NCBI GenBank assembly: GCA_043739065.1
Contig: JAYUEU010000192.1
Span: forward strand, 1 to 46,201
Reading direction: 5' to 3'
DNA from: Synechococcales cyanobacterium
GTDB lineage: Bacteria > Cyanobacteriota > Cyanobacteriia > Leptolyngbyales > Leptolyngbyaceae
Length of the DNA stretch: 46,201 bases
This document shows, in pieces, positions 5,513 to 32,340 of the stretch (position 1 is the stretch's first letter; every line of letters starts with the position of its first letter). The notes beneath the pieces are model-generated. The model saw nothing but the letters and a program-made list of their open reading frames with translations, searched no databases and had not been told where the DNA came from. The translations under genes were made by a program, and so were the position numbers.

Positions 5513-5755
5513 AAATCTAATGTTTGCTAGTATTACATCTATTCTATAGAGCGATCTGTGTTATTAATAAGTAATTAAATTTTAGTAGCCATTTTTAAAT
5601 CCAAAATTATCATAAATCGGATGGACATTTTTGGGTAGAGAAGACCTCGATCGCACTTTACATTAGCAGGCAGTTACGGAGACAAAAGCCAAGCCCCATA
5701 AGCTACCACATGTACCTCGACCGCTCCAAAAAGATCAATAAACCTAATGTACTTA

Positions 5756-6601
5756 TCAAATCTTACTCAAAATTCCATTCACCCGATCGACCCACACCCC
5801 ATTTCCCGATCGTTGATATTCTGCTTTTGCAAATTCTAAAACTCGTTTTGCTTCAGGATAGTTTTTCTGTTTCAAGAACGTCATCCCAGCACCATAGTAA
5901 GCATTCGCAAACTTTGGATTGAGTTGAGTCGCCGATCGAAACGCCGCGATCGCATTCGACCAATCACCATCACTATACAAAACTGTCCCCAACGCATAAA
6001 ACGCATCCGAATAATTAGGATTCACTTGTACCGCTTTACGAAAGGCCGCGATCGCACCTCGGTTCCATTTTGTCCGTTGATAGGCAAGACCTAAATGATA
6101 GTAAGGCTCAGGAATACCAGGATTTAATTCAGTTGCTTTTTGGAATGAATTCGCCGAACCTTTAACATCACCTTCAATATTTTGAACTAGTCCTAAATTG
6201 TAATAGGCCATTCCAAGCTTTGGATCAAGCACAATTGCTCTAGATAAATACTCCCGCGATTGTTTGAGATTATTACCTTCAAGAAGTGCCGCGCCCAAAT
6301 TGGCATAGGTCAGCGCATAGGTCGGATCAAGCTGAATTGCCTGATAAAAAGCAGAGGCAGATGCTTGAACTTGGCCCGATTGTCGCAGTGCTAAACCTAA
6401 ATTGTATTGGGCTGCAAAGGATTTAGGATTGATCTGAGCGGCGCTAGAAAATGATCCGATCGCACCCGAAACATCACCCGTTTTCACCTGCGTCAAGCCT
6501 TGCTGATATAAACTTTCAAATGATTGTGCAGAAACTGGCAACTGTAATGGCAATTGCAATATAGAAGCTAAAACAAATGCTGCGATCGGAACCCTTTTCA
6601 T
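5756..6601 (-). CDS. secreted TPR-repeat protein
   Basis: 281-aa ORF with an N-terminal signal-like segment followed by about 7 consecutive 34-aa TPR units (A..Y.LG.....G....A...F..A..L.P). Confidence 0.8.
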   Translation of the reverse strand: MKRVPIAAFVLASILQLPLQLPVSAQSFESLYQQGLTQVKTGDVSGAIGSFSSAAQINPKSFAAQYNLGLALRQSGQVQASASAFYQAIQLDPTYALTYANLGAALLEGNNLKQSREYLSRAIVLDPKLGMAYYNLGLVQNIEGDVKGSANSFQKATELNPGIPEPYYHLGLAYQRTKWNRGAIAAFRKAVQVNPNYSDAFYALGTVLYSDGDWSNAIAAFRSATQLNPKFANAYYGAGMTFLKQKNYPEAKRVLEFAKAEYQRSGNGVWVDRVNGILSKI

Positions 6602-6606
6602 AATGC

Positions 6607-7062
6607 CTAAACCAATCCCTTAACAACCATCAACGACTCATCAATATGTCCTTGAAAGTTTAACTGTGAATTGAACACATGCCGGACAATCCCAGCACGA
6701 TCGATCACATAAGTCACACGACCGGGCAAAATTCCCATAGTCGCCGGAACCCCAAACGCCTTACGTGTCAAATTTCCTGCATCGCTCAGTAAGGTAAAAG
6801 GCAATTGATGCTTGGCTGCAAACGCTTGATGAGAAGCCCTATCATCACTGCTAATCCCAATAACTTCCGCGCCAGCCTCTTGGAATGCAGCATAGTTATC
6901 CCGAAAACTACAGGATTCCTTTGTGCAACCCGGCGTATCATCTTTTGGATAGAAATACAGAACCACGCACTTCTTCCCGATAAAATCTTTCAAATTAACC
7001 GTATCGCCCGTTTGCGATTTCAAACTAACATCCGGAAGCGTATCTCCAACTTTGAGAGCCAT
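6607..7062 (-). CDS. bcp: peroxiredoxin, Bcp/PrxQ type
   Basis: 151-aa ORF with YFYPKDDTPGCTKESC (the Cys-X4-Cys peroxidatic/resolving pair). It lies 5 nt upstream of the TPR gene, so the two are probably an operon. Confidence 0.9.
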   Translation of the reverse strand: MALKVGDTLPDVSLKSQTGDTVNLKDFIGKKCVVLYFYPKDDTPGCTKESCSFRDNYAAFQEAGAEVIGISSDDRASHQAFAAKHQLPFTLLSDAGNLTRKAFGVPATMGILPGRVTYVIDRAGIVRHVFNSQLNFQGHIDESLMVVKGLV

Positions 7063-7179
7063 GTTAAATTACCTAAAAACTAAGAATGAACACAGATCAA
7101 ACTATTGTTAATGCTATAGCAACCAACCTAGAATCAATCACGAAATTACAATTCATACCTTTAGCACCGATTTAGCACT

Positions 7180-7929
7180 ATGGAACCGATTTCAGCGATC
7201 GTCTCACTTCTACTTGGACTCATCGCACCCGTGGGTATTGTCAGCGATCGAATCGCCGAAAATCAAATCCGCAAACAGCTCATCCACACCGAATCCTTAC
7301 AAATCCGGATCGACAACGCCCCAACCTATCAACTCCTTAACGGGAAACTCAACAAAGTACGCCTTGCAGGTCGTGGATTATTCGTCACACCCGATATCCG
7401 AATAGACACCTTGGACCTCGAAACCGACCCGATCGCCCTCGCTGGATTAAGCGCCAAACTCGCTAAACCCCTACAAGGTGCATTTCGCATCGTCTTGACC
7501 GAAACCGACATCAACCGCGCCCTGAACGCCCCACAATTCAACGATCGGCTCAAAAGTGGTCGCTACCAAGTCACCCAACCCCAAGTCAAAATCCTAGAAA
7601 ACGATCGTATTTCATTCCAAGCCCAACTCACCGAAGCCCGCTATCCCGGCCAGCTTAAAATCCTGATTGAAGGTAAACTCAGTAGCACCTCCGGCAAAAC
7701 CCTCCAACTCGAAAACACCACCTTCCAAATCAACAACAAACCCGTCGAACCGATCGTCCTCAAACAGCTCTTCCCCAGCGGCATTCCCGGCATCAACCTC
7801 ACCCAATACGAAGCCCAAGGCATCACGAGCCGCATCCTTAAACTCGACACCCAACCCAACGGTCAACTAGAACTAATCGGCTTTCTACAAATCCGCCCCG
7901 ACACAAGCCTATTAAATCCTAAAACTTAA
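7180..7929 (+). CDS. DUF2993 (LmeA-like) family protein
   Basis: 249-aa ORF with an N-terminal hydrophobic anchor and the repeated 'L.G.L..V.L.G.G' organisation recalled for DUF2993. Confidence 0.55.
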   Translation: MEPISAIVSLLLGLIAPVGIVSDRIAENQIRKQLIHTESLQIRIDNAPTYQLLNGKLNKVRLAGRGLFVTPDIRIDTLDLETDPIALAGLSAKLAKPLQGAFRIVLTETDINRALNAPQFNDRLKSGRYQVTQPQVKILENDRISFQAQLTEARYPGQLKILIEGKLSSTSGKTLQLENTTFQINNKPVEPIVLKQLFPSGIPGINLTQYEAQGITSRILKLDTQPNGQLELIGFLQIRPDTSLLNPKT

Positions 7930-11869: not shown

Positions 11870-12010
11870 CACGAGTTTAAATATGTCAGATTGTTGCGGC
11901 GGTGGAATTCTAGAGGGCGATCGCCAGCCATCATAGTAAAGTGAGGATCGGCGGTCAGAGTTTATCTTTCGATCGCTTTAATCTTTTTGACCAAAATGGG
12001 GAATACACTC

Positions 12011-12250
12011 ATGGTTCAGCGTGGTTCTAAAGTTCGCATTCTGCGGAAAGAGTCTTACTGGTATAACGACATCGGTACCGTCGCATCGATCGATGCAAGC
12101 GGCATCAAATACAATGTGGTTGTTCGGTTTGATAAAGTAAACTACACCGGTTTCAGCGGTAGCCCATCCGGGGTTAATACCAACAATTTCGGCACGAGTG
12201 AACTCGTCGAGGTCGAAGCGCCACCAGCAGCAAAAGCAAAAAAAGCATAG
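12011..12250 (+). CDS. psaE: photosystem I reaction centre subunit IV PsaE
   Basis: [28 protein letters not shown]...[12 protein letters not shown]...NNF is canonical PsaE. I prefer the ATG at 12011 to the TTG at 11987 given in the ORF track. Confidence 0.93.
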
Positions 12251-12293
12251 ATTCGTCTATTCTCTATTTGCTCAATACTGGTTTCATCAAACC

Positions 12294-12345
12294 AAAAGGG
12301 ACTTCAATCATTACGATCGGAGTCCCTTTTGATTTGGTGATTTTG
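12294..12345 (+). terminator. rho-independent terminator of psaE
   Basis: Perfect 10-bp stem AAAAGGGACT (12294-12303) / AGTCCCTTTT (12321-12330), followed by T-rich sequence. Confidence 0.7.
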
Positions 12346-12362
12346 TTTGTTACTGTTTGTGA

Positions 12363-12488
12363 ATTAGTCATTCAAACTATGGAAGTGCGATCGATTTGGC
12401 AAACAATCTAATTCTGGTAACGCATAATACACAAGAGTTCGAGCATGTGAATGGGTTGCAACTTGAAGATTGGGAGATAGTAGTTTGA
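12363..12488 (+). pseudogene. C-terminal remnant of a PIN-domain VapC toxin
   Basis: The frame translates to ...GSAIDLANNLILVTHNTQEFEHVNGLQLEDWEIVV*, the typical VapC C-terminus (LVT.N..dF..i.gL.lEdW). An in-frame TGA lies just upstream, and there is no N-terminal PIN half or antitoxin. Confidence 0.55.
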
Positions 12489-12680
12489 GTAAAGAAGAAT
12501 TTTTTGCAATTCAACCGTGAAAATTTTGTAAGGGGCAATCGAGGTTGTATTGGTAAAGCCTATGTCAGCTTTGTATAAAGATTTGTCCTACTGCTTGCTC
12601 CATTTACTGACGTGTAGGTTTTTTACCGTATACATAATGACATGATCAAGCAAATAAAATAAAACATTCACTCAAGTAGT

Positions 12681-13058
12681 ATGTCTGAGAACTCCAGTAT
12701 TAAATTGACGATCGCCTTCAATGACCCGGATTTGGACAATGAAGACCTAGAAGCGCAAGCCCAAAACCTGTTGATTCAAATGAGAGACTTGGACGAAATT
12801 GAAACAGTCGATCGGGTACTTGATCCGAATCCACCGGAAGGAAACAAAGCTGTGGGCGCAGTTTTGGTGGGACTGTTGACGGCTCAGGTGAGTAAAGAGA
12901 ATGTTCAAAAGGTCATGGGATTTTTGGGCGATCGTTTGGGTAATAAGCCGATCGAATTAGAAGTAGAAGCCAACGGCAAAAAGCTAAAGGTTTCAGCCCA
13001 TAGTCGAGAAGAGTTAGAAGCGGCGATCGAAGCAGCACAGAAGTTTGTAGTAGCATAG
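12681..13058 (+). CDS. small acidic protein, EACC1-like (effector-associated constant component)
   Basis: 125-aa ORF with the pattern DLDNEDLEAQAQNLL.QMRDLDEIE.V......PPEGNKAVGAVLVGLL....... followed by IELEVEANGKKLKVSAHSREELEAAI. This matches my recollection of EACC1 proteins encoded next to caspase/trypsin effectors. It ends 10 nt before the caspase gene. Confidence 0.5.
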   Translation: MSENSSIKLTIAFNDPDLDNEDLEAQAQNLLIQMRDLDEIETVDRVLDPNPPEGNKAVGAVLVGLLTAQVSKENVQKVMGFLGDRLGNKPIELEVEANGKKLKVSAHSREELEAAIEAAQKFVVA

Positions 13059-13068
13059 GAAAACAGAC

Positions 13069-15006
13069 ATGGTGAAGGTCGCATTGCTGATTGGGGTTGG
13101 GAATTACGAGTATCCGCATGATGTGATGCCGTTGGTGAGTGCGCCTAAAGATGTGGCAGCGATGCAGCGGATTCTCTTGAATCCTCAGATGGGGGACTTC
13201 TCTGAGGTTATACCGCTGATCGATCCTGACCCGATGCAAATGCAGGAAGCGATCGAAACGTTGTATCGCGATCGGGGAAAAGATGATCTCGTTCTACTAT
13301 TCTTCTCTGGTCATGGACTCAAAGATGATGGCGGCAAACTTTACTTTTCAACGCGATTAACCCGTAAAACGCTGAAAGGTGATCTAGTCAAATCGACAGC
13401 GGTGCCTGCCAGCTTTGTGCGAGAAATTATGGGCAACAGTCGATCGCGACGACAGGTCATGATTTTAGACTGTTGTTTTAGTGGAGCTTTTGACCCATCA
13501 CTTAATGCCAAGGATGATGGATCTCTGGATGTTCAAGGCCAACTCGGTGCAGAAGGGCGCGTTGTACTGACTTCTTCCAGTTCGACTCAGTATTCTTTTG
13601 AGCAACAAGGCTCAGAACTCTCGATCTACACGCGCTTTTTAGTCGAAGGGATTGAAACTGGCGCGGCGGATCGGGATAGCGATGGCAATGTTTCGGTGCG
13701 GGAATTGCATGAGTATGCGACCCAGAAGGTGCACGAGGCTGCACCAAAGATGAATCCCAAAATCATTGTGCTGAAGGATGAAGGTTTTGATGTGGTGTTT
13801 GCGAAGGCGCAAATTACTGATCCGAAGCTAAGGTACCGTAAGGAAGCAGAACGTTATTCAATGCGGGGCGAAATCTCTCCAGCCGGCCGGACGTTGCTTA
13901 ATACGCTGCGAGAGCGACTGGCGCTAACATTTGAAGAAACCCAAGAAATTGAAGATCAGATTTTACAACCGTTTCGGGAGCGTTTGCAGCATTTAGAGAC
14001 CTATCGCTCGACCTTTGTTGCAGAAGTCGAGCGTCAATATCCTTTTATGCAAGAAACTATCAATGAGTTGAAAGACTTACGGGAGATTCTGGGACTGAGA
14101 AAAGAGGATGTTACACCGGTTGAACAAGAAGTTATCTCGCAAATTGTTAGCAAGTCAGAAGCTTATCGACAAAAGCTACAACGGTATGAGCAAGAATTCA
14201 TCAGAGCTATTCAGGCTGAGTTTCCATTGAGTCAACCTGTTAGTGAGGGATTAAACAAGTTTCAAGCTGAATTGGGATTGATCGATGAGGATGTGGTACA
14301 AATCAAGCGCCCCATTCTTGAGCGTCGAGTTGCTGGGGATAAGCAACAAGAGTTAGAGCAGCAAAGGCAACAGGATTCAGAAAAAGTGCGACAACCAAAC
14401 GGGGCAATGCAAAGGCTGAAGGAAGATCATCCTCAACCAGATTCTTCGGCACATATACCTGTTCGTTCTAGCAAGTCACTATTGGCTGGAGCCTGTCTTT
14501 TATCGATGCTTGTTGCCGGAGGTCTTTTCTATTTCAAATCGACTTATCCACAACCTCAATCTGATGTTCAAGAATCGTCTAATTCTTCTGTTACATCAAC
14601 TCCCATAACTTCTCTGCCTTCTCCTCCTAAGCTAATAACTTCTCCATCTCCACAAGTCATTTTACCTAATACTCCTGTTTCTTCTTTATCACCACCTACT
14701 CCAAACCAAATTCTTACCCCAACACCAGTAGCTCGTCATCCGCCCACTCCAACTGTTCTACCTTTAAACGAGCGTAGGTACACAACTATTGAGACTGATG
14801 ATCACAAGATCGAGGTGCGAGAGACCCCTAAAACAGAGACTAAAAAATTTCTGACGCTAAAAGAAAATACAAATGTATTTTGTAGAGAGATAACGACAAC
14901 GGGTGAGAATGTTACGGTTAAAAATAAGTCTAGCGATCAGTGGAGATTCTGCCAAATGCCTGATAACTCTCATGGCTTCATCCACTCACTTCTCCTTACT
15001 CCTTAG
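13069..15006 (+). CDS. peptidase C14 caspase-family protein (orthocaspase) with helical repeats, a TM segment, a Pro/Ser/Thr linker and a C-terminal small beta domain
   Basis: VALLIGVGNYEY..., LLFFSGHGLKDDGGKLYF (His) and MILDCCFSGAF (Cys) form the caspase dyad. Three LGL..EE-type helical repeats occupy aa 270-420, and the TM segment is LLAGACLLSMLVAGGLFYF. Confidence 0.85.
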   Translation: MVKVALLIGVGNYEYPHDVMPLVSAPKDVAAMQRILLNPQMGDFSEVIPLIDPDPMQMQEAIETLYRDRGKDDLVLLFFSGHGLKDDGGKLYFSTRLTRKTLKGDLVKSTAVPASFVREIMGNSRSRRQVMILDCCFSGAFDPSLNAKDDGSLDVQGQLGAEGRVVLTSSSSTQYSFEQQGSELSIYTRFLVEGIETGAADRDSDGNVSVRELHEYATQKVHEAAPKMNPKIIVLKDEGFDVVFAKAQITDPKLRYRKEAERYSMRGEISPAGRTLLNTLRERLALTFEETQEIEDQILQPFRERLQHLETYRSTFVAEVERQYPFMQETINELKDLREILGLRKEDVTPVEQEVISQIVSKSEAYRQKLQRYEQEFIRAIQAEFPLSQPVSEGLNKFQAELGLIDEDVVQIKRPILERRVAGDKQQELEQQRQQDSEKVRQPNGAMQRLKEDHPQPDSSAHIPVRSSKSLLAGACLLSMLVAGGLFYFKSTYPQPQSDVQESSNSSVTSTPITSLPSPPKLITSPSPQVILPNTPVSSLSPPTPNQILTPTPVARHPPTPTVLPLNERRYTTIETDDHKIEVRETPKTETKKFLTLKENTNVFCREITTTGENVTVKNKSSDQWRFCQMPDNSHGFIHSLLLTP

Positions 15007-15063
15007 ACCTACATCTCCTTAAAAGGGCGTTTGAAAGGCCCCTGAGTCGCTAGCAAAAAGCTC

Positions 15064-15094
15064 GATCCCCTAAATTCTCCTTAGCAACGGTGAC
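15064..15094. repeat. solo, degenerate arm of the GATCCCCTAA-type hairpin element
   Basis: GATCCCCTAAATTCTCCTTAGCAACGGTGAC resembles the termini of the elements at 29939-30081 and 44106-44217. Confidence 0.35.
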
Positions 15095-15245
15095 TTTGAT
15101 CCGAATGCTGATTCCTTTTTTTTTAAGAACAGAACGATCAGGTCTCGATTGTCACAACCTTTTTCGGACTATGGTGAGTATTATCTTAGATTTCATAGAA
15201 AATTGTATTTTGTAATAAACTAATTGACCTTTAGTTAACTTCTAT

Positions 15246-15971
15246 GTGTCTTCTATTTCCATGAAAATTAATCGTCGATCGCTGCTGATTCCTTGGGCTT
15301 TGCTGATTGCTTTGTTTGTGGTGATGATTCGACAATCGGTGAGTTATGGGATAACGCGATTGACGATCGTCCTAATAGGAACTGTAGTTATTGCGGGATT
15401 GCTTTATTTTTTGTGGAAGCAAACGATCGTGCGGTGGAGTACGATCGCATTTCTTACAGGCTTTAGTATTTTTCTGATGTTGCCGGGGAATCTGGTGGCA
15501 GGCAAAGATTTACAACCGAACTATGGCGCAATGCTCAGGAGTTATAAGGGTGTGCCCTATGTCTTGGGCGGGGAAAATCACTTTGGGATTGATAGCTCAG
15601 GATTAGTGCGGGAGGGATTGATTCAGGCGAACCTGCATTATGGCTTTGAGACCTTAAATCCGGCATTAATTCGGCGAGGACTGGAGATGTGGTGGTTTGA
15701 TGGGGCGGCAGATGCGCTATTAGGGGAATATCGTGGTTATACACAGCGTCAGTTTGCGGCGGTGAGCATCAATGCGCTTGACCACAGTCGGATTAAGCTA
15801 GGCGACTTAGCTGCGACCAGTGACGGAGAATATATTCTGGCGTACTTGGGCAATAAACAATGGATTGAAGCTGACCCGAATTTACGCAAAGTAGTGATTG
15901 AGTCAGTACCCACCACTAATCCATGGTTTAATACTGCCGTCGAGATTTTGCGGTGGCGGCAATTTATATAA
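15246..15971 (+). CDS. membrane-anchored NlpC/P60-like protein with substituted catalytic residues
   Basis: 241-aa ORF (GTG at 15246; alternative ATG at 15261). YKGVPYVLGGENHFGIDSSGLV matches the NlpC/P60 'Y.wGG...G.DCSG' motif but has Ser where the nucleophile Cys should be. Confidence 0.5.
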   Translation: MSSISMKINRRSLLIPWALLIALFVVMIRQSVSYGITRLTIVLIGTVVIAGLLYFLWKQTIVRWSTIAFLTGFSIFLMLPGNLVAGKDLQPNYGAMLRSYKGVPYVLGGENHFGIDSSGLVREGLIQANLHYGFETLNPALIRRGLEMWWFDGAADALLGEYRGYTQRQFAAVSINALDHSRIKLGDLAATSDGEYILAYLGNKQWIEADPNLRKVVIESVPTTNPWFNTAVEILRWRQFI

Positions 15972-16641
15972 GCGTTGTGTCGGAACGCTGTTTCTGCTTA
16001 CGCTCATAAAACTGACAAGCAAGCTGCCCCAGCCCAAACAATAGCGTCGCATTCCCCGCACTGCCCACCGCCGCACCCAAAACCGGAATCACCTCCACCA
16101 CGCTCATCCCCGCCTTCAGTACACCGCTGCTTCCCGTTGCTAATCCCCAAATAGCCAGAACCTCACCCCGCCGAGTCGGATCAGTCGGCGCAAACCCATA
16201 GATCGCCGCAATCCGATAAATCATTTCCGCTTGCAACGCCGCGATCGCCCCCAAATCGACAGCTAGCAACATCAACGCCAAAGGGGGCACAAAATTCGTC
16301 GCCAAACCAATTCCCGCAGCCTTCCACACCGTATCCATCACCACCCGCTGCGCCAACGAACCATCCGTATCCTGAGGATAGGTCCGTCGTAATTCCGCGC
16401 TCTCTCGCTGCACCACATTCACATCCACCTGCCCCAACGCCGCCATCACCCAACTTCCCCCCGGCACCTTCGTCACAAATTGCATTATCGGGTGAGTTGC
16501 CACAGGTTCTACCACCTGCCCGATCGTCTCTGTCCCCTGTTCCACAAATTCATGCAACCCATCTCCGATCTTCTGAGAAGTTTCCTCCACAAATCGGCTT
16601 ATATCTTGAAAAATACTAGAATTCGGATTTGTCATAGCCAA
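15964..16641 (-). CDS. hypothetical protein, possibly EcsC-like
   Basis: 225-aa ORF with a Gly/Ala-rich hydrophobic core and LQAEMIYRIAAIYGF. The family call is from memory only. Confidence 0.4.
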   Translation of the reverse strand: MAMTNPNSSIFQDISRFVEETSQKIGDGLHEFVEQGTETIGQVVEPVATHPIMQFVTKVPGGSWVMAALGQVDVNVVQRESAELRRTYPQDTDGSLAQRVVMDTVWKAAGIGLATNFVPPLALMLLAVDLGAIAALQAEMIYRIAAIYGFAPTDPTRRGEVLAIWGLATGSSGVLKAGMSVVEVIPVLGAAVGSAGNATLLFGLGQLACQFYERKQKQRSDTTLI

Positions 16642-16748
16642 AGAATGATGGTGCTGAGTAATAGACGTTATAGCAGTTCCAAACCGAGTGAAGTATAGAC
16701 TGTCTCAACGGAAACTAGGCGAACATTGGCGATTTGTTTCAACTCTAA

Positions 16749-17549
16749 TTATTGATTTTGTCCAGATTGGATTTGGAGAATTTGGTCTAGGGACAGTTCC
16801 GTCAGGCGAGCGATCGCATTCAAGCTAATCCCTTCATTAAGCATCGCTAAAACCATCTCCTTCCGTAATGCTTGGCGACCTTTGGCTTCACCCTTCGCTT
16901 CACCCTTCGCTTCACCTTCTTGAAAAATTTCTTGATAGATTACGGATTCTCGCATGATGTCCTCTCGGAAAATACGTTTAAGAATGCTCTTATCGTACTT
17001 CAAACCCGCCATGAGCTGCACGTAGGACGAGACTTGACTTTTTTCTTCAACGGACTCAATTCGATCGATCCGCTCTGATATTTGTTGCAATAATGCGTCA
17101 GATTTTTCTATTTGAGTCAAGGCGGCAAACGGTAACAAAACGGGATCATTCAAAAATAACTCGGTGTCCTGTTCCCACATTTTTACCACAGTAAATTCAT
17201 GAGATGTGGATCCAATTTTAAACCTATTTTCAATGATAGTTTCAGCGGACGGCGGGAGTAGGACCACAACAATTTGGATAATCGGAATACCGTAAAGACG
17301 ATAGAGACGAACCCAGTAATCCAACATTCGCAAGGGCATCGGTGGAATAATCGGCCATTGAGTTTGGAATTCGATGTGAAGAATGTGGCCTTCTGTTTTG
17401 AAAAAAGTGACGGAATCGGCTCGAATCGGTTCAATACTGAGTTCGGTTTTGAGAATGGTAATTTCATCAGGAATATGACCCAAAAGCCAATTGGCAAAAG
17501 GTTTTGGATGTTTTTCAGCAAGCAATTTACAGAGATTATCGAAGGACAT
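16749..17549 (-). CDS. Rpn-family recombination-promoting nuclease / putative transposase (PD-(D/E)XK, DUF4351 tail)
   Basis: 266-aa ORF with the N-terminus FDNLCKLLAEKHPKPFANWLLG...EFQT typical of cyanobacterial Rpn/YhgA-like proteins. It contains a 12-bp x3 repeat encoding EAKGEAKGEAKG. Confidence 0.7.
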   Translation of the reverse strand: MSFDNLCKLLAEKHPKPFANWLLGHIPDEITILKTELSIEPIRADSVTFFKTEGHILHIEFQTQWPIIPPMPLRMLDYWVRLYRLYGIPIIQIVVVLLPPSAETIIENRFKIGSTSHEFTVVKMWEQDTELFLNDPVLLPFAALTQIEKSDALLQQISERIDRIESVEEKSQVSSYVQLMAGLKYDKSILKRIFREDIMRESVIYQEIFQEGEAKGEAKGEAKGRQALRKEMVLAMLNEGISLNAIARLTELSLDQILQIQSGQNQ

Positions 17550-17624: not shown

Positions 17625-20048
17625 CTAAAAGTTAAAATCATCCATTCCAAGGCCCGGTAGATTTGGGGGCACCACGGCCAAGGGAGACGAGACCTTATAG
17701 CCTTCTCGCTTTGTCGCGATCTCAATGGCGATCGCCTCAATCTGAATCTCCAAACTGCCTAAGGGTACGGTGAATGTAGTGGTCGCTTCCATTGAGCGAT
17801 ACTGAGCATCGGGCACAAAATCTACTAAATAGCGCGGACCATCCAGTAAAGTACGGGTTTGCCGATCGTTGATCCAAAGTTTTACATAGAGCTTCGGCTG
17901 AATCATCGGCAGCTTCACTTTCACCATCAACGACTGTCCCGCCACCACTTCATCTACCGCCTCAATTTCCAAACTCGGGGTAGGCACCAATTCATCTACC
18001 CCAATCAAAAGCGGATTGTCGCCTGTATCCAACGCCGCCGGACCGATGTTGAACACATCATCCATAATCACCACGGACTCGGCAGACGGGGAGGTTCCTC
18101 TGGTAGAAGCAAAGGGATTGATGGAAGGTGCATCTGTCGGCGGGATGGCATTGATGGACTCGGTTTTGGTCTCTTCCGCGAAGGCACTCATGCGGTCCAT
18201 GAACCGATCGCCCAAGTTTAAGGATTCAAAGCGATCGTCTGAGGGCGATCGATCGTTAATTTGTTGGGCATTAATGTCGATGGTGAGCAGATCGTCTGGA
18301 TCATCTAAGTCCAACGGTGCACTGGTATTAAAGGCAAATTCCGACTGACTTAAATCAAGATTTTGATCTAGATCGTTATCCAAAAATGCCGCCTCTAGTC
18401 CATCATCAAAACGATCGAACTCTTCATTACTAATCGTTTCGGACGACGCCAATGCTGGAACTGGAAGCAACAGATTTTCTTCTGGTGAAACTTCTGGCGA
18501 AATATCGAACGGAACAGTTGAGGTATTTTCGAGAATCGCATCTTCTAACTGAACATCTTCTGATTGAGTGGGATCATCAAACGAGAATTCATCCAGCATC
18601 ACATCCTCAATCGCAAAATCATCAAACAGGTCCTGGACATCAGCTTCAGGAGTGGGAGCAGTTAAGAATGTGGGCAAAGAAGGAGAAGGCCGATCGTCAC
18701 GATTTTGGTCGGGTTGGTAGAGTTTCGGGGGAAGTTGGGATTTCGGCTGAACTTGAAAAGATGTGGGGGCAGTGGCGGGTTGATTGACCAGACCCAAAAA
18801 TTGATCATCAAGCTCTGGGCCAGACGGTTCAGCAGGCGGATGGGGCAATTCGTCCACAACGGGCGATCGAGTCTGGGATTCAAGGTCTTGCATGGTCGCC
18901 AACAGATCACTCAATGGCGCAAACAAGGTAAACCGATCGATCGCTAACGTATCGCCTGTCCGATTGTCCATTAAACACACTTCGCCCATCAGCATGGAGG
19001 AACCAGGTAATTCAGCCGGAAGCAGCAAACCGAGTTGCATGTCAAAGGGCAACGTAATTAGGGTAAATGGGGTCGAGCGTTCCACCACTAAGTAACCCTG
19101 CTGCGGATCGCGGACTCGCACGACAAAGGTACATTCCGGTAATGATCCAGAACTATTGGCTTGAACGATACCTTCAACAACGATCGTCTGTTCGGCCTGA
19201 ATTTCGTAGCTATTCGGCTGAAGAGAGAGCGTAATGGTTTGGCGATCGATGGAGAGTTCTGGGACAATCGGTTCTGGGGCGATCGGTTCTGCAACAGCCA
19301 AAACAATTGGGGGCGAGGCAATGGGCGGTGGTTCTACGACTTCTACAGATTCCGACGGCAATTCTGGCTGAACAGTCGGCCATTCGGAGATCAAGCCATC
19401 CAAACTCGCGAAAAGATCGTCTTCGGCGGTGGTTAAGTCATGCTCTGATTCATCAGGCATTGCCAAACTCGTCACCAAATCCGCCTCTTGTTGCTCCAAA
19501 GGTGAAACCAAGGGCAGCATCTGCGACGGATGCACTGGATCTGCAACAGGACTCACCGCAGCGTTCGGCTCTGGGTTTGACTCTGGGTTCAGCTCTGATA
19601 TTGGCTGTGGCGTTGACCCTAATTTCACCTCTGGTTCGGGCTGAGACCAGTCGGGTTCCCATTCGCCCGCCACGTCAGATTCTTTGGTCAATACGTGCAA
19701 TTGAACTGAATAGTGTTGAGTGGCACCACGAGCTTCATCACGGCTGGCATCATGGGGCACTCCGATCGCCAGTTCCCAGACTCCCGGCTGCATTTGGGTA
19801 AATGGAATCACCAGCAACAGTCCCTTTGCACTGGTTTCACCCGATCGCACTTGAGTCCGTCGTTTAGGCGGCAACTCGTCCGTAGACTCATGGGTAATCC
19901 GAATGTCCATCACCGTATCAGGCATGGCAGTTTTGACCATGACCCGGTAACGTCCTTCCAAAATTTCGACATCCGGCGATTCCAATGGCAACCAGGATCG
20001 ATCGCCTTCCTGCTGCAATAGAAATTCCCAATTGTTTGGTCCAGCCAT
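17625..20048 (-). CDS. large acidic Pro/Asp/Glu-rich hypothetical protein
   Basis: 807-aa uninterrupted ORF. Beta-rich segments sit at the N-terminus, middle and C-terminus, separated by long acidic low-complexity stretches. I recognise no motif. Confidence 0.55.
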   Translation of the reverse strand: MAGPNNWEFLLQQEGDRSWLPLESPDVEILEGRYRVMVKTAMPDTVMDIRITHESTDELPPKRRTQVRSGETSAKGLLLVIPFTQMQPGVWELAIGVPHDASRDEARGATQHYSVQLHVLTKESDVAGEWEPDWSQPEPEVKLGSTPQPISELNPESNPEPNAAVSPVADPVHPSQMLPLVSPLEQQEADLVTSLAMPDESEHDLTTAEDDLFASLDGLISEWPTVQPELPSESVEVVEPPPIASPPIVLAVAEPIAPEPIVPELSIDRQTITLSLQPNSYEIQAEQTIVVEGIVQANSSGSLPECTFVVRVRDPQQGYLVVERSTPFTLITLPFDMQLGLLLPAELPGSSMLMGEVCLMDNRTGDTLAIDRFTLFAPLSDLLATMQDLESQTRSPVVDELPHPPAEPSGPELDDQFLGLVNQPATAPTSFQVQPKSQLPPKLYQPDQNRDDRPSPSLPTFLTAPTPEADVQDLFDDFAIEDVMLDEFSFDDPTQSEDVQLEDAILENTSTVPFDISPEVSPEENLLLPVPALASSETISNEEFDRFDDGLEAAFLDNDLDQNLDLSQSEFAFNTSAPLDLDDPDDLLTIDINAQQINDRSPSDDRFESLNLGDRFMDRMSAFAEETKTESINAIPPTDAPSINPFASTRGTSPSAESVVIMDDVFNIGPAALDTGDNPLLIGVDELVPTPSLEIEAVDEVVAGQSLMVKVKLPMIQPKLYVKLWINDRQTRTLLDGPRYLVDFVPDAQYRSMEATTTFTVPLGSLEIQIEAIAIEIATKREGYKVSSPLAVVPPNLPGLGMDDFNF

Positions 20049-23319: not shown

Positions 23320-25704
23320 ATGGAAGATATCAAGCTACATTGTCCTAACCCATTTTGCAAACAGCCTAACGATCGAACGGCTGATTTTTGTTATAGCTGT
23401 CACACCTTTTTACCAAAACGCTATTTGTGGGTAGTGGGAAACGATCGTTCTCGACTTGTTCCTGGGATGGTTTTAGGAAATCGCTATGCAGTTTTAGAAG
23501 AAAATACTCTACTAGATTGTTATCCAGAAAATCCACCGGAAATGCCTGCTGAGATTTTTCTATCCCTGGAAGCCTATTTAAAGCTTAGTCATGCCGTTCC
23601 CCATGCACCCAAGGTCTATTGCATTTTAGAGATTGATGGAAAAGATTGCATTGTTTTAGAAGAGACGGCGATTTATTCCTATGTTATTTCAGTAATTCCA
23701 GAGGACGAGACAACGATCGCACCCAAAGCCGGAACATTAATGCCCATATTGCAAGAATGCTGGGGTTCTGCGAGCAATTTTCGTCTCTTAAATTGGATTT
23801 ATCAGATTGCTACGATTTGGGATAGATTCAAGACTCTTGGCGCTTCACAGACTTTATTTGACCCATATTGTATTCGGGTTGATGGCGGATTAATTAAGAT
23901 ATTAGAGCTTCGTTTTGATTCAAAAGAGACTGTCGATAACACTCTTCCAGTTCTTCTCCAACATTTAATTCATTACAGCGATCGATCGAATCTAAAACCA
24001 GATCTAACGATAATGCGCCGTTTAAGAGAAATATATGAGCGATTGATCCACGAGGCCGAGGAAGATCAAAGTTATCTATTATGCGAATGGCTGGATCAAG
24101 AGATGATCCACCATAGTTCTGGATCACTCGATATTGAAATTGTTACTCAAACGGATCAAGGCCCAAATCGAAAACGTAATGAAGATGCTTGCTATCCTAC
24201 TTCTACCCAAAAAGTAACTATTTCCCGATCGAAATCAACTGATCTAGAAAAACCATTGTTAATTGTATGTGATGGAATTGGTGGTCATGAAGGCGGTAAT
24301 ATTGCATCTAATTTAGCGATCGAAACTTTGACAACTGTATTAGATGCTCGAATTCCTAAAGCGATCGGATATGAAAAAAAGGTTGATACAACTCAAGTTG
24401 TACGAGAAGGAATTCAAATTAGTAACGATGCAATTTCCGATCGTAATGATCAAGAAGGTCGTAGCGATCGACAACGTATGGGAACAACTGTTGTTTTAGC
24501 TAGAGTTGAAGGTCAACGATTACAACTTGCTCATGTTGGAGATAGCCGAGCCTATCGAATTACAGCCCGAGCTTGTTACCAACTTACCGTTGATGATGAC
24601 ATTGCTTCTCGGGAAGTAAGATTAGGCTATACGTTATATCGTGATGCGCTTCAGCGTAGTGGGACGGGTGCATTGACACAGGCATTAGGAATGGTGTCAT
24701 CTTCTCTTCTACATCCAAGAATTCAAACCTCGTTTGTCGATGAAGACTGTATTTATTTACTTTGTTCTGATGGACTGAGTGATTACGATCGGATTGAACA
24801 ATGTTGGGCGCAGGAATTGATTCCGGTATTACAGGGTCGAATTCAACTTGCGGATGCTTGTCAAAGTCTAATTGAAATTGCCAATGCTCATAATGGTCAT
24901 GATAATGTGACGGTTGGATTATTATATTGTCGCGTTCCAGACGAAACCGTACTGTCTAATGGTTCTCCAACTCGATCAACATTACTCCCAATTTGGGGTT
25001 CAAAGTCAAGTGCTAAGTCTAAGCGTAAAGACGATCGTGATTTGAGCCAAGTCCCTCCAACAACAACATCTTCAACTCAATTGGTCGAACCGCATAGAAG
25101 AGGGAAACGATCGCAGGGAACTCAGAAATCCAATGGTTCCCAGGGGCGATGGATTTTTCTGTTTTCCGTTTTGGCCGCCATTGGTGTTGTTACTGGAATT
25201 TTAGTTTTACTATTCAAGCCCGATCGTCAAGTAGAATTGCCAACTCCTGTTGCTATTGCATCGCCGTTCCCAAATGGATTAAAAGTGAATCAGCTTATTA
25301 AAGTTGTACCAGTATTGAATCCAATGTCAACTCCAAGTCCAACGTCTAGTTCAGTTCCAAATTTATCCGCTGTGGGCCAGCCTAGTTCAGAAATTCCAGC
25401 CAATTTAATCCTGGTTCCTAAACCGCCGTCACTTCTCGGGACACCTGTTGAAACCTTTGAAGTGAATGTTGGCGAAGTGGCTCCGGGAGCGGTGATGCGG
25501 GTGGTCGATCGGCAAGTGCGAGGAACAAAGCCTTGGATTAAGCTCCAAATTTGTAGTGTGGCAACGATCGGCGAAACTAAGCAGCTGAAACCTGGTGTTG
25601 AGGGGTGGTATGCCGAGCCAATGTTGTTATCGCAGGTTGTTGCTGTGACATCAGAATTGCCCCCTACTGCGCTTTCTGCTTGCCCTATGTTGAAGTCTAA
25701 GTAA
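23320..25704 (+). CDS. PP2C-family Ser/Thr phosphatase with N-terminal zinc ribbon, an uncharacterised ~240-aa domain, a TM segment and a C-terminal extracytoplasmic beta domain
   Basis: CPNPFCKQPN...CYSCH forms the zinc ribbon. PP2C motifs are RKRNEDAC, VCDGIGGHEGG, MGTTVV, HVGDSRAY, LCSDGLSD and GHDNVTV. The TM segment is WIFLFSVLAAIGVVTGILVLLF. Confidence 0.85.
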   Translation: MEDIKLHCPNPFCKQPNDRTADFCYSCHTFLPKRYLWVVGNDRSRLVPGMVLGNRYAVLEENTLLDCYPENPPEMPAEIFLSLEAYLKLSHAVPHAPKVYCILEIDGKDCIVLEETAIYSYVISVIPEDETTIAPKAGTLMPILQECWGSASNFRLLNWIYQIATIWDRFKTLGASQTLFDPYCIRVDGGLIKILELRFDSKETVDNTLPVLLQHLIHYSDRSNLKPDLTIMRRLREIYERLIHEAEEDQSYLLCEWLDQEMIHHSSGSLDIEIVTQTDQGPNRKRNEDACYPTSTQKVTISRSKSTDLEKPLLIVCDGIGGHEGGNIASNLAIETLTTVLDARIPKAIGYEKKVDTTQVVREGIQISNDAISDRNDQEGRSDRQRMGTTVVLARVEGQRLQLAHVGDSRAYRITARACYQLTVDDDIASREVRLGYTLYRDALQRSGTGALTQALGMVSSSLLHPRIQTSFVDEDCIYLLCSDGLSDYDRIEQCWAQELIPVLQGRIQLADACQSLIEIANAHNGHDNVTVGLLYCRVPDETVLSNGSPTRSTLLPIWGSKSSAKSKRKDDRDLSQVPPTTTSSTQLVEPHRRGKRSQGTQKSNGSQGRWIFLFSVLAAIGVVTGILVLLFKPDRQVELPTPVAIASPFPNGLKVNQLIKVVPVLNPMSTPSPTSSSVPNLSAVGQPSSEIPANLILVPKPPSLLGTPVETFEVNVGEVAPGAVMRVVDRQVRGTKPWIKLQICSVATIGETKQLKPGVEGWYAEPMLLSQVVAVTSELPPTALSACPMLKSK

Positions 25705-30180: not shown

Positions 30181-32340
30181 ATGACGATCGTAAATCCCGA
30201 TGATAATCTCAATCTATCTGCAAAGAATTCCGCGAATGTGAATGCGGAAACAATCTACAGTTTGATCATTGGTGACAATGCGACGGTGAATCAGCAGATT
30301 ATTCAGCAGCAACGAAAAAGGAGGTTGTTTCAGCTTGCGGAGGACAGTCCTGATTTTACGGGCCGATCGCAGGAAACGGAAACTATTGAGAAGATTTTGA
30401 AGGGTGATTCTCCGACGGCGATGATTTCGGTGGTGTCGGGGATGGGCGGGGTGGGGAAATCGATGTTGGCGCGACATGTGGGAAATCGGTTGAAGGCGCA
30501 GTTTCCCGATGGACAGCTTTATGTGGATTTGTTGGGGCAGTCGGATACTTGTCGATCGGCGGATTCGGTGTTGGTTGAGTTTTTGGTGGATGGGTTTGGG
30601 GAAGATCCGCAGCATTTGCCGTTTGAGTTGGATGCGTTGCGGAAGTTGTTTCACGATCGCCTTTCTGGTTGCAAGATTTTGGTGGTGTTGGATAATGCGG
30701 GGGATGCGCTTCAGGTGGAGCCGTTGTTGCCACGGGTGCGGGGGTGCGGGGCGATCGTGACGAGTCGGGAGCCGTTGATGAATTTGGCGGGGATGACGGC
30801 GGAGAATTTTGTGTCGTTGGATGTGATGACGGAGGGGGAGGCGACGGAGCTTGTTCAACGGTTGTGTCCTAAGAAGACGGTGGATGTTGGGTTGGTGAAA
30901 TTGTTGGTGGGGCTGTGTGGGCGGTTGCCGTTGGCGTTGACGATCGTGGGGAAACTTTTGCTTCAGACGGCTTCGTTGACGCTGGTGGAGGTGATGGCGG
31001 AGTTGTCTAAGGAACGATCGCGGTTACGTGCGTTGAAGTATGTGGGAAGTGATAATCAGGTGGATGCTCGGTTGGATGTGGAGGCGAGTTTTAATTTGAG
31101 CTATGTGCGGTTGAATGAGTCGCAGCGGGGACTTTTTGAGGCGGTGGCACTGTTGCGGGGACGAGATTTTGGGCGGGAGTTGGCGGCGGTGATGGTGGGC
31201 CGGGAGGAGGCTGAGGTGCGGCGGGAGCTAGATCAGTTAGTGGCGTTGCAGTTGGTGCAGTGGGAGGTGGGGCGTTATGGGTTTCATGATTTGGTGCGGG
31301 AGTTTGGACGGGGGAAGCTGGGGGCGGAGCGGGAACAGGCGCTGACGGAGGTGGCGTTGGGCTGGTATGTGGCGATGGCGGATCAGATGAAAAAACTGTT
31401 GCTAACTGATGAATCGGTTGCAGTTAAAATGGCAATTCAGCAGTTTGAATCAGAGTGGCAAAATTTATTACAAGCAATTACGTGGTCGTCAGAAATCAAG
31501 GAAAATTCGTCAGCTATCAAGCTTTTTCAAGATGTTCAGTATTATGCGTCGTTGCGAGGATTCCGTACTCAACAATTGTTAGAAGTAGGTTTTCAGACGC
31601 TAACAACTGCTCAATTAATCGGCGATCGAGTGGGAGAAGCGAATACGTTAAAAGCGATCGGCGATGTATTGCAATTTCTAGACCAGCGTCAGGATGCGTT
31701 AAATCGATATGAAACGGCGATGGAGATTTATCGTCAAGTGGGCTCTCGACTGGGAGAAGCGAATACGTTAAAAGAGATCGGCGATGTATTGCAGTTTCTA
31801 GACCAGCGTCAGGATGCGTTAAATCGATATGAAACGGCGATGGAGATTTATCGTCAAGTGGGCGATCGACTGGGAGAAGCGAATACGTTAGACAGTTTTG
31901 CCTTAGCAAATTTTTCTGGTGAGAACTATTTGAAAGCGATTGAATGTCACCAGCAAGCACTCGACATTTTTACACTGATTGAATCTCGATATGATATTGC
32001 TTGGTCACTACGATATTTAGGAAAAGTACATCTCAAATTAGGTGATTCATGGAAAGCAAAGGAATTCTTTGAGAAAGCCGCCACACTTTTTGAAGCTTTA
32101 GAAATGGACGATTCAGCTCAAGCTTGTCAGCAGGAAATCAAAAATCTCAATCCAAATATCGTACCCGGCACCTTACCCAAAGCACCCAACATTAGCGACG
32201 ACCTCACCCCCCGCAAGAAAAAGCCACAGTTTCCCCTTTGGCAAAGTGCGATCGTCCTTCTGGTGTTGGGCATTGGCTGGCTAGCCATCAAACCCCATGC
32301 TCCCGCGCCGCAGAATGGTGAAGTGAGACAGGCGAAGTGA
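30181..32340 (+). CDS. NB-ARC STAND NTPase (bacterial NLR) with N-terminal amyloid-type motif, TPR sensor repeats and a C-terminal TM segment
   Basis: Walker A GMGGVGKSMLA, Walker B KILVVLDNA, RNBS-B-like AIVTSRE, GLPL motif CGRLPLAL and MHD-like FHDLVREF. About 6 TPR-like 40-aa units (GEANTL..IGDV....) follow, then the tail FPLWQSAIVLLVLGIGWLAI. Confidence 0.85.
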   Translation: MTIVNPDDNLNLSAKNSANVNAETIYSLIIGDNATVNQQIIQQQRKRRLFQLAEDSPDFTGRSQETETIEKILKGDSPTAMISVVSGMGGVGKSMLARHVGNRLKAQFPDGQLYVDLLGQSDTCRSADSVLVEFLVDGFGEDPQHLPFELDALRKLFHDRLSGCKILVVLDNAGDALQVEPLLPRVRGCGAIVTSREPLMNLAGMTAENFVSLDVMTEGEATELVQRLCPKKTVDVGLVKLLVGLCGRLPLALTIVGKLLLQTASLTLVEVMAELSKERSRLRALKYVGSDNQVDARLDVEASFNLSYVRLNESQRGLFEAVALLRGRDFGRELAAVMVGREEAEVRRELDQLVALQLVQWEVGRYGFHDLVREFGRGKLGAEREQALTEVALGWYVAMADQMKKLLLTDESVAVKMAIQQFESEWQNLLQAITWSSEIKENSSAIKLFQDVQYYASLRGFRTQQLLEVGFQTLTTAQLIGDRVGEANTLKAIGDVLQFLDQRQDALNRYETAMEIYRQVGSRLGEANTLKEIGDVLQFLDQRQDALNRYETAMEIYRQVGDRLGEANTLDSFALANFSGENYLKAIECHQQALDIFTLIESRYDIAWSLRYLGKVHLKLGDSWKAKEFFEKAATLFEALEMDDSAQACQQEIKNLNPNIVPGTLPKAPNISDDLTPRKKKPQFPLWQSAIVLLVLGIGWLAIKPHAPAPQNGEVRQAK
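30226..30303 (+). other. N-terminal signalling motif NSANVNAETIYSLIIGDNATVNQQII
   Basis: It matches the C-terminal motif of the upstream 146-aa ORF (NSA.V.A.TIYS...GD.A.V.Q.I). Confidence 0.7.
31621..31890 (+). repeat. 2.25 copies of a 120-bp in-frame tandem repeat inside the TPR region of the NLR
   Basis: 31621-31740 and 31741-31860 differ at 6 of 120 positions, and their second halves are 60/60 identical. 31861-31890 starts a third copy. Confidence 0.95.

Follow-up and report, generated by a model that had tools for sequence, protein, structure and literature searches.

Two adjacent genes on a cyanobacterial contig appear to form a two-gene cell-death (conflict) module, in which a small acidic protein of the EACC1 family is paired with an EACC1-associated caspase. 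The contig (JAYUEU010000192.1, GenBank assembly GCA_043739065.1) comes from a Synechococcales cyanobacterium; the whole stretch analysed, its positions 1 to 46,201 (46,201 nucleotides, nt), is called the window below, and its closest relatives are Leptolyngbyales-type cyanobacterial genomes. We give this reading, the pore mechanism discussed below included, a probability of about 0.62. By family, the pair belongs to the published EACC1-caspase system as a divergent branch found in cyanobacteria, and it carries a previously unlisted tail composed of a transmembrane (TM) helix and an SH3b-like domain. The pair is laid out as follows:

12681..13058, + strand: gene of the EACC1-family small protein (open reading frame, ORF, of 125 amino acids, aa; isoelectric point, pI, 4.5)
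13059..13068, + strand: intergenic spacer of 10 nt (stop TAG, then GAAAACAGAC; an AGGA overlaps the stop codon)
13069..15006, + strand: gene of the EACC1-associated, orthocaspase-like caspase (ORF of 645 aa; matches in Pfam, NCBIfam and PADLOC)

A preliminary description of this DNA, made from its letters and translations, had reported an acidic 125-aa ORF ending 10 nt before a 645-aa caspase gene; the coordinates and the pI bear this out, and the motifs it listed for the small protein (PPEGNK followed by AVGAVLVGLLTA, then IELEVEANGKKLKV and EELEAAI) are all found in the translation. The spacer is mostly 13–44 nt long in relatives, and the two genes are probably co-transcribed. A promoter and terminator scan of 11900..15400 gave no signal above chance. 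The pair is present in a single copy in the window: tblastn found only one, ruling out several copies there.

The pairing is conserved across genomes. We collected 80 loci from species-representative genomes, found from a 12-sequence alignment and containing 81 EACC1 copies, and in 73 of these 81 copies a caspase domain lies 6–205 nt downstream on the same strand. The co-occurrence of the small-ORF family with C14 peptidases, which the preliminary description had singled out for measurement, is therefore seen for most copies. Of the eight exceptions, three lie so close to a contig end that less than 600 nt remain, and the other five are decayed or rearranged: one has insertion sequence (IS) fragments (L024), one has a truncated EACC1 (L066), and one is an orphan EACC1 beside a NACHT-like gene (L014). 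In another (L027, 6001..end) the EACC1 is fused in frame to LGL repeats and TPR, the caspase domain being deleted, and in the last (L031, 2874..end) the EACC1 is truncated, and after it a TIR domain takes the place of the caspase in front of the same LGL repeats. Some genomes have several copies, e.g. three loci each in Nostoc foliaceum FACHB-393 and Nostoc sp. P2090.

The caspase is assigned directly by its own sequence. It passes the NCBIfam model NF047832 (caspase, EACC1-associated type) with 156.4 bits (E = 7e-46; residues 4–223, model positions 2–210 of 211), the curated cutoff being 140 bits, and it matches Pfam Peptidase_C14 (PF00656; 4.6e-17) and the PADLOC caspase model (1.5e-15). Its homologues number 2862, and orthologues of the pair are 71–92% identical. 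The catalytic part is placed as follows:

13075..13752, + strand: p20-like catalytic domain of the caspase, aa 3–228 (from residue conservation and a motif alignment with MALT1 and with KrAvs12 of Ktedonobacter racemifer)
13312..13314, + strand: codon of His82
13474..13476, + strand: codon of Cys136

SGHG is found at residues 80–83 (with His82) and DCCFSG at residues 134–139 (with Cys135 and Cys136). When the 120 best homologues are compared using the window protein as reference, H82 is kept in 117, D134 in 120, C135 in 119, C136 in 118 and D28 in 115, so that the His/Cys dyad, which had been read as intact from the two motifs, is also near-invariant in the family. GHG aligns with the catalytic-His motif of MALT1, and D28 with the Asp of the MALT1 'PLVDV'; in the comparison with KrAvs12 (BLASTP 4e-6) both GHG and LDCCFS are aligned. 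D134 stands two residues before the catalytic Cys136, an arrangement that we take to be like the 'DxC' motif of metacaspases and paracaspases, and the D28 and D134 positions presumably form the acidic S1 pocket of the Arg/Lys-specific paracaspases and metacaspases. Orthocaspases and paracaspases are reported to prefer basic P1 residues (PMC8283722).

The small protein is placed in its family through its homologues. These fall into at least 1305 clusters at 90% identity and 328 clusters at 50% identity, and the members that have names are mostly called 'hypothetical'; given these cluster numbers and the number of caspase homologues, both ORFs are far beyond chance. We aligned 80 diverse homologues and scanned each individually against Pfam: 19 of the 80 match EACC1 (PF19953; model length 107, gathering score, GA, 23.6 bits), while no other family is matched by more than one of them. 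Among ten divergent homologues tested, two exceed the PF19953 GA over model positions 5–106 of 107 (P0228 with 26.4 bits and P0251 with 23.9 bits), and these two match the window's small protein over its full length (1.2e-16 and 3.7e-14, respectively). Because homologues including P0228 and P0251 match PF19953, the small ORF belongs to the EACC1 family by transitive homology; as far as sequence relationships tell, it is a divergent EACC1 branch mostly missed by the current Pfam model. The identification as EACC1, which the preliminary description had offered, is in this way supported, through the homologues and not by a direct match.

An experimental precedent for such a pair is available from K. 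racemifer. Evans et al. 2025 (bioRxiv 10.1101/2025.11.14.688446) report that the caspase domain of KrAvs12 cuts KrEACC1 into N- and C-terminal fragments, that toxicity comes from the C-terminal fragment only, and that cleaved EACC1 permeabilises liposomes; the modelled cleavage site is Asp49, just before the hydrophobic segment. From that work, EACC1 is a caspase substrate and a pore-forming death effector, beyond an adaptor. We compared this picture with an AlphaFold2 (AF2) model of the window's small protein (predicted local distance difference test, pLDDT, 83.8; predicted TM-score, pTM, 0.71). The model has beta1 at residues 6–13, alpha1 at 20–36, beta2 at 40–47, a low-confidence loop at 48–60, beta3 at 61–71, alpha2 at 72–86, a hairpin of beta4 (91–97) and beta5 (100–106), and alpha3 at 109–124. 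Foldseek found no PDB structure at E ≤ 1e-3 for it, just generic ferredoxin-like sandwiches. The elements of the small protein are:

12681..12821, + strand: N-terminal half, aa 1–47, beta1-alpha1-beta2, pI 4.05 (AF2 secondary structure; predicted to be autoinhibitory)
12822..12860, + strand: flexible loop DPNPPEGNKAVGA, aa 48–60, predicted caspase cleavage region (lowest model confidence, pLDDT ~55)
12846..12848, + strand: codon of Lys56
12849..12890, + strand: conserved hydrophobic, Gly-containing segment AVGAVLVGLLTAQV, aa 57–70 (hydropathy maximum)
12951..12998, + strand: amphipathic beta-hairpin IELEVEA-NG-KKLKVSA, aa 91–106 (strands 91–97 and 100–106 in AF2)

The predicted fold agrees with the published picture, in which the N-terminal fragment completes a sheet with the C-terminal strands and the cut falls just before the hydrophobic segment. 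A basic residue, K or R, occupies position 56 in 71 of the 80 homologues (D48 is kept in 41 and R45 in 43), and the cleavage residue of KrEACC1, Asp49, aligns one residue after K56 in weak but collinear hhalign and hmmsearch alignments. Comparison with the N-terminal fragment of KrEACC1 (Evans 2025) suggests that aa 1–47 are autoinhibitory. The segment AVGAVLVGLLTAQV, in which G64 is kept in 73 of 80 homologues and G59 in 53, is the counterpart of the feature by which PMC7159879 defines EACC1, a 'TM helix with a patch of small residues', and it is flanked by beta-alpha-beta and alpha-beta-beta-alpha elements, as in the EACC1 description of Kaur et al. 2020; in the AF2 monomer it is a buried strand (61–71), with a 19-mer hydropathy of 1.11. 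In the hairpin region K89, I91, E92, V95, E96, G99, K100, K101, L102, V104 and A106 are invariant among close homologues. Hydrophobic and charged residues alternate along the hairpin, a pattern that would suit a beta-strand-mediated oligomer or pore. Three features are compatible with the definition of EACC1 by cleavage and pore formation (Evans et al. 2025): where the loop lies, the conservation of Lys56, and the amphipathic hairpin.

The mechanism we propose is as follows. The 125-aa protein would be a latent, soluble and autoinhibited pore-former, with aa 57–70 buried in the alpha/beta fold and capped by the acidic N-terminal half. The 645-aa protein would be a protease anchored in the inner membrane, its catalytic domain and repeats lying in the cytoplasm, and its linker and a disulfide-bonded SH3b-like domain in the periplasm. 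A signal received via the variable tail, most plausibly a peptidoglycan or cell-envelope change, would activate the caspase, probably by oligomerisation, and the caspase would then cut EACC1 in the loop of aa 48–60. The cut is predicted after Lys56, since the caspase has the acidic S1-type residues D28 and D134, position 56 is basic in most homologues, and orthocaspases are reported to prefer a basic P1. The freed C-terminal fragment (~aa 57–125) would oligomerise into membrane pores and kill the cell. The gene pair, its family assignment, the conserved linkage, the intact dyad, the domain architecture and the variability of the cassette are seen in the data themselves. We infer cleavage and pore formation for this pair by analogy with KrEACC1, and the topology, the ligand of the SH3b-like domain and the cleavage site are predictions from models and sequence. 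A role in anti-phage defence is plausible, and envelope-stress or developmental death is a live alternative.

The caspase consists of a constant module and a variable tail, with the following elements after the catalytic domain:

13816..14358, + strand: helical 'LGL..E[ED]' repeat region, aa ~250–430 (repeat positions, conservation)
14473..14541, + strand: single predicted TM helix, aa 469–491 (Kyte-Doolittle 19-mer maximum 2.06)
14542..14769, + strand: Pro/Ser/Thr-rich linker, aa 492–567 (from the sequence)
14770..15003, + strand: C-terminal SH3b-like domain, aa 568–645, 78 aa (AF2, Foldseek and the SH3_4 match of an orthologue)

Three L[GA]L / LxL..E[ED] repeats lie at residues 284, 341 and 402, in agreement with the three LGL..EE helical repeats described earlier. 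Conservation relative to the window caspase among the 120 best homologues is 0.45–0.88 up to about residue 420 (0.45–0.74 in the repeat stretch), falls to 0.27 at residues 421–450 and is 0.07 beyond. The caspase and the three LGL repeats together make up the constant region, which extends to about residue 440. The repeat region has no Pfam match above threshold (Tic110 is sub-threshold) and no sequence match in PDB. Homologues cover 55–70% of the caspase query before their tails diverge, and these tails include TIR, TPR, GUN4, RDD, FGE-sulfatase, WD40, Hsp70/DnaJ, FHA, thioredoxin, SH3_3 and CD225-like domains.

In the window the tail is of the TM-linker-SH3b type. The length and sequence of the linker differ among orthologues. 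The terminal domain is modelled by AF2 as all-beta (pLDDT 87.5), and its top Foldseek matches are all SH3b or SH3 domains (query TM-score, TMq, 0.58–0.66; probability 1.0): an NlpC/P60 endopeptidase (4r0k; TMq 0.66, root mean square deviation 1.7 Å), NlpC/P60 proteins of Anabaena and Nostoc (2hbw, 2evr), the cell-wall-binding domain of a muramidase (8b2f) and a phage endolysin (4krt). The tail of the orthologue P0273 passes Pfam SH3_4 (26.0 bits against a GA of 24.1), and tails of further orthologues have subthreshold matches to SH3_3, SH3_4 or SH3_2. Two Cys of the domain (C38 and C61 in its own numbering) are invariant and fit a periplasmic disulfide. A signal peptide is absent and R/K residues stand before the one TM helix, so the topology of the protein is probably N-in/C-out, with a cytoplasmic protease and a periplasmic SH3b-like domain. 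The preliminary description had named a TM helix, a long Pro/Ser/Thr linker and a C-terminal beta domain outside the membrane; hydropathy, sequence and AF2 confirm these parts, and the outside location comes from the topology prediction. The SH3b-type tail is confined to a small clade (P0271–P0284, P0306 and weakly P0292; loci L081–L085) and occurs in none of the 80 species-representative loci. Past the caspase stop, window positions 15004..15045 (+) still encode KRAFER in another frame, matching the extended C-terminus (…LLLKRAFERRGRLKDF) of P0272, an orthologue with 78% identity; this match suggests that a recent small indel made the present stop.

Comparison with an orthologous locus from a lake metagenome-assembled genome (MAG; L007), with the gene order vapC fragment, EACC1, caspase, ecsC and Rpn-like gene, indicates where the tail varies. 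By blastn the window is homologous to L007 at 12387–14393 (83%) and at 15963–17135 (90%), and the part between them is:

14394..15962, + strand: variable cassette relative to L007, without blastn counterpart (caspase tail with TM helix, linker and SH3b-like domain, plus the NlpC/P60 gene)
15246..15971, + strand: membrane-anchored NlpC/P60 gene (Pfam 6.4e-06)

L007 has instead, at 6337..7581, extra repeats and a multi-TM, CD225-like caspase tail, while the locus is otherwise collinear; the breakpoint of the cassette coincides with the point where the constant caspase-plus-repeat module ends. Among the other SH3b-tailed orthologues, that of L085 lies beside ispH and has a 125-aa gene 10 nt upstream. 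Another is found in L081 (Phormidium sp. FACHB-592, JACJOZ010000062.1, 1..14546), an island with three caspase genes and two EACC1 genes that also holds vWA_CoxE, Peptidase_C39-like and Tn7-like TniQ/AAA_22/rve genes; this orthologue (5563..7524, minus strand) has no upstream EACC1 ORF of its own and is oriented divergently from an EACC1-caspase-GUN4 pair; among named homologues, the EACC1 of this pair is the one closest to that of the window. A tblastn search found no homologue of NlpC/P60 or psaE in any of 85 loci, the SH3b-tailed orthologues included, and a functional link between the caspase tail and NlpC/P60 is accordingly unproven. A bolder version of the proposal, which we regard as tentative and rather unlikely, is that the TM-linker-SH3b tail makes the caspase a periplasmic sensor of peptidoglycan or envelope integrity that licenses the EACC1 pore from the outside in, independently of an NTPase (nucleoside triphosphatase) and in a pyroptosis-like manner, the sensor, possibly with the NlpC/P60 gene, being exchanged as a cassette at a fixed locus. 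If this were true, damage (e.g. by phage lysins or predators) would be relayed across the membrane in a filamentous cyanobacterium.

Several observations weigh against the reading of the pair as an EACC1-caspase death module. The small ORF's own sequence has no relevant match in Pfam (down to E ≤ 10), NCBIfam or PADLOC, and the window protein shows no significant similarity to the K. racemifer EACC1 (WP_007905045.1). When the family profile was compared with KrEACC1, hhalign gave E = 0.37 against the single sequence and E = 0.038 against the Kr family profile (low probability, collinear over 82 columns), and hmmsearch gave at most 4.7 bits; as these three comparisons are non-significant, we do not claim direct homology to the characterised KrEACC1. 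The profile-profile comparison that had been suggested for the small ORF was non-significant against the Kr family; two homologues of the ORF pass PF19953. The mechanism would therefore be transferred over a long sequence distance and at family level only; the precedent is a preprint, and its Asp49 site was placed by modelling and is acidic, not basic. For the tail, the Foldseek E-value is ~0.03 and the best and only Pfam match of the window domain is SH3_1 with E = 0.15, so that the SH3b assignment comes from the predicted fold and the orthologues. In addition, the locus is flanked by housekeeping genes (psaE, carotenoid and glycosyltransferase genes), with no defence island.

Other explanations differ from the proposed module in what EACC1 does or in what the death is for. 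EACC1 could be, as proposed in PMC7159879 from the conserved TM-like small-residue segment, a membrane-inserted sensor or adaptor with a true TM helix, which activates the caspase; the caspase then processes itself and releases its C-terminal domain as the effector. The window's family conserves this segment as well, and a crude hydropathy scan finds a hydrophobic segment past residue 300 in 125 of 182 partner caspases, which would bring both proteins to the membrane. But in the AF2 monomer, a soluble fold predicted with confidence, the segment is an interior beta-strand, and its hydropathy is low; the KrEACC1 experiments show a cleaved toxin, and a non-enzymatic SH3b-like tail tethered outside the membrane fits a sensor or anchor over a released effector. 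We consider this model quite improbable. A still poorer account is that the pair is an inactive relic, or that the small protein is an unrelated conserved cyanobacterial neighbour of caspases: the vapC remnant next door, the visibly decayed relatives (L024, L027 and L066) and the missing direct Pfam match would agree with it, but neither ORF is disrupted, their start codons, dyad and motifs are conserved, the two genes are adjacent in 73 of 81 copies from many cyanobacterial genera, and the orthologues retain their high identity. These conservation data largely refute it, and we think it very improbable.

The same cleavage of EACC1 could also serve a purpose other than phage defence, such as envelope-stress or developmental death or a necridium-like breakage of filaments, with the SH3b-like domain monitoring peptidoglycan. 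SH3b domains of this structure are cell-wall-binding modules of NlpC/P60 enzymes, muramidases and endolysins; an NlpC/P60 gene is directly downstream within the same variable cassette, the flanks are of the housekeeping kind, the EACC1-caspase system is linked to a multicellular habit, and EACC1-caspase-DnaK fusions suggest stress-response roles (Evans et al., bioRxiv 10.1101/2025.11.14.688446). However, the NlpC/P60 adjacency is seen with no other SH3b-tailed orthologue and at none of the 85 loci, relatives are found in conflict islands that also hold Tn7-like genes, vWA and further caspases, and the swapping of tails at an orthologous locus is typical of diversifying immunity genes. We judge a non-phage role unlikely, if still the more serious of the competing explanations.

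Upstream of the small ORF is psaE (11987..12250; Pfam PsaE 2e-33). Just 3' of psaE, at window positions 12285..12345 (+), a terminator-like hairpin with a T-run after it can be seen by eye (AAGGGACT ... AGTCCCTT); it is missing from the output of the consensus scan, probably owing to its long loop. Between psaE and the small ORF, a frame at ~12381..12488 (+) encodes ~35 aa of a PIN/VapC C-terminal remnant (GSAIDLANNLILVTHNTQEFEHVNGLQLEDWEIVV up to a stop; also ...AIDLANNLILVTHNTQEFEHVNGLQLEDWEIVV and ...LANNLILVTHNTQEFEHVNGLQLEDWEIVV, each ending at a stop), confirming the vapC remnant noticed earlier. In the orthologous locus L007 (4116..4406) the PIN fragment in the same place is longer, with 96 aa retained, and the decay of vapC therefore appears to be progressive at a shared site. 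Two genes on the opposite strand, downstream of the cassette, are both kept beside ecsC in L007, as far as the L007 contig extends:

16749..17549, - strand: 266-aa protein with a (GEAK)3 repeat and a C-terminal HTH (helix-turn-helix; weak HTH_7 match)
17625..20048, - strand: very acidic 807-aa protein without a Pfam match

No NTPase domain was found in the small protein or the caspase by Pfam, NCBIfam and PADLOC scans, and none in the flanking genes; the nearest NTPase is an NB-ARC-TPR gene 15 kb off. The preliminary description had remarked on the lack of an adjacent STAND or AAA NTPase, from which it drew a stand-alone or trans-acting module. The absence holds, but it is no anomaly, since Kaur et al. 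2020 (PMC7159879) define a self-contained two-gene system. The NB-ARC-TPR gene is part of a second group of signalling or conflict-type genes 8–15 kb downstream of the pair, all on the + strand:

23320..25704, + strand: PP2C-domain protein, 794 aa
25816..27447, + strand: CHAT-FHA protein, 543 aa (another caspase-fold protease)
30181..32340, + strand: NB-ARC-TPR STAND NTPase, 719 aa

Both the type of system and the general way in which it works are known from the literature, and NCBI has a name for the caspase type, so that what is gained is annotation and a testable variant rather than a new principle. A large cyanobacterial family of 125-aa 'hypothetical proteins' is an EACC1 branch missed by the Pfam and NCBIfam thresholds, i.e. 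an annotation gap, and many catalogued cyanobacterial orthocaspases would likely have a defined substrate encoded next door. Vague ideas of caspase-driven cell death in cyanobacteria would become concrete as EACC1 being cut at Lys56 and its fragment perhaps forming a pore, and the membrane-anchored, SH3b-tailed variant is a candidate for NTPase-free envelope sensing.

Among known systems, the window's pair can be compared most closely with System 4 of Kaur et al. (eLife 2020, PMC7159879; PF19953, NF047832). In both, the 5' gene encodes a small protein whose conserved hydrophobic, small-residue segment lies between alpha+beta elements, a constant N-terminus is combined with many alternative tails (in our case among the homologues), and the system occurs in multicellular bacteria with multiple copies per genome. 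The window's small protein differs in falling below the Pfam and NCBIfam thresholds (it is annotated 'hypothetical'), its constant module adds ~190 aa of LGL helical repeats, and the paper includes TM plus periplasmic-binding-protein tails in its list but no tail of TM plus Pro-rich linker plus SH3b-like domain. The KrEACC1-KrAvs12 pair of K. racemifer shares the gene order, the GHG and LDCCFS motifs, a similar size of the small protein, a predicted cleavage loop directly before the hydrophobic segment and the proposed logic of a latent pore-former. In that pair, however, phage tail connectors are recognised by a cytoplasmic sensor, the Avs12 STAND NTPase (bioRxiv 10.1101/2025.11.14.688446), whereas the window's protein has a membrane anchor and a predicted periplasmic SH3b-like domain and no NTPase; Asp49 is at the cleavage position there, whereas the conserved Lys56 here lies one residue upstream.

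The logic also resembles that of bacterial gasdermin-protease pairs and of eukaryotic caspase-gasdermin pyroptosis, in which a caspase-family protease frees an adjacently encoded pore-former from an autoinhibitory part. There is, however, no relation in sequence or fold (the EACC1 model gives just weak, generic ferredoxin-like matches), EACC1 is far smaller, and its inhibitory part would be N-terminal, not C-terminal. With the cyanobacterial orthocaspases (e.g. MaOC1 of Microcystis; PMC8283722, PMC6426788) the window's caspase shares the p20-type C14 domain, the His-Cys dyad, putative acidic pocket residues that would suggest a basic P1, and the variety of accessory domains, a C-terminal TM helix being present in a minority of them (PMC8283722, PMC6426788); the subgroup described here is set apart by its obligate EACC1 partner, an upstream small ORF being unmentioned in the searched portions of the orthocaspase survey text. 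The SH3b wall-binding domains (4r0k, 2hbw, 2evr, 8b2f and 4krt), finally, resemble the C-terminal 78 aa in fold and in their probable extracytoplasmic location; the sequence similarity is marginal, and in the window the domain is joined through a TM helix to what is predicted to be a cytoplasmic caspase, not to a wall hydrolase.

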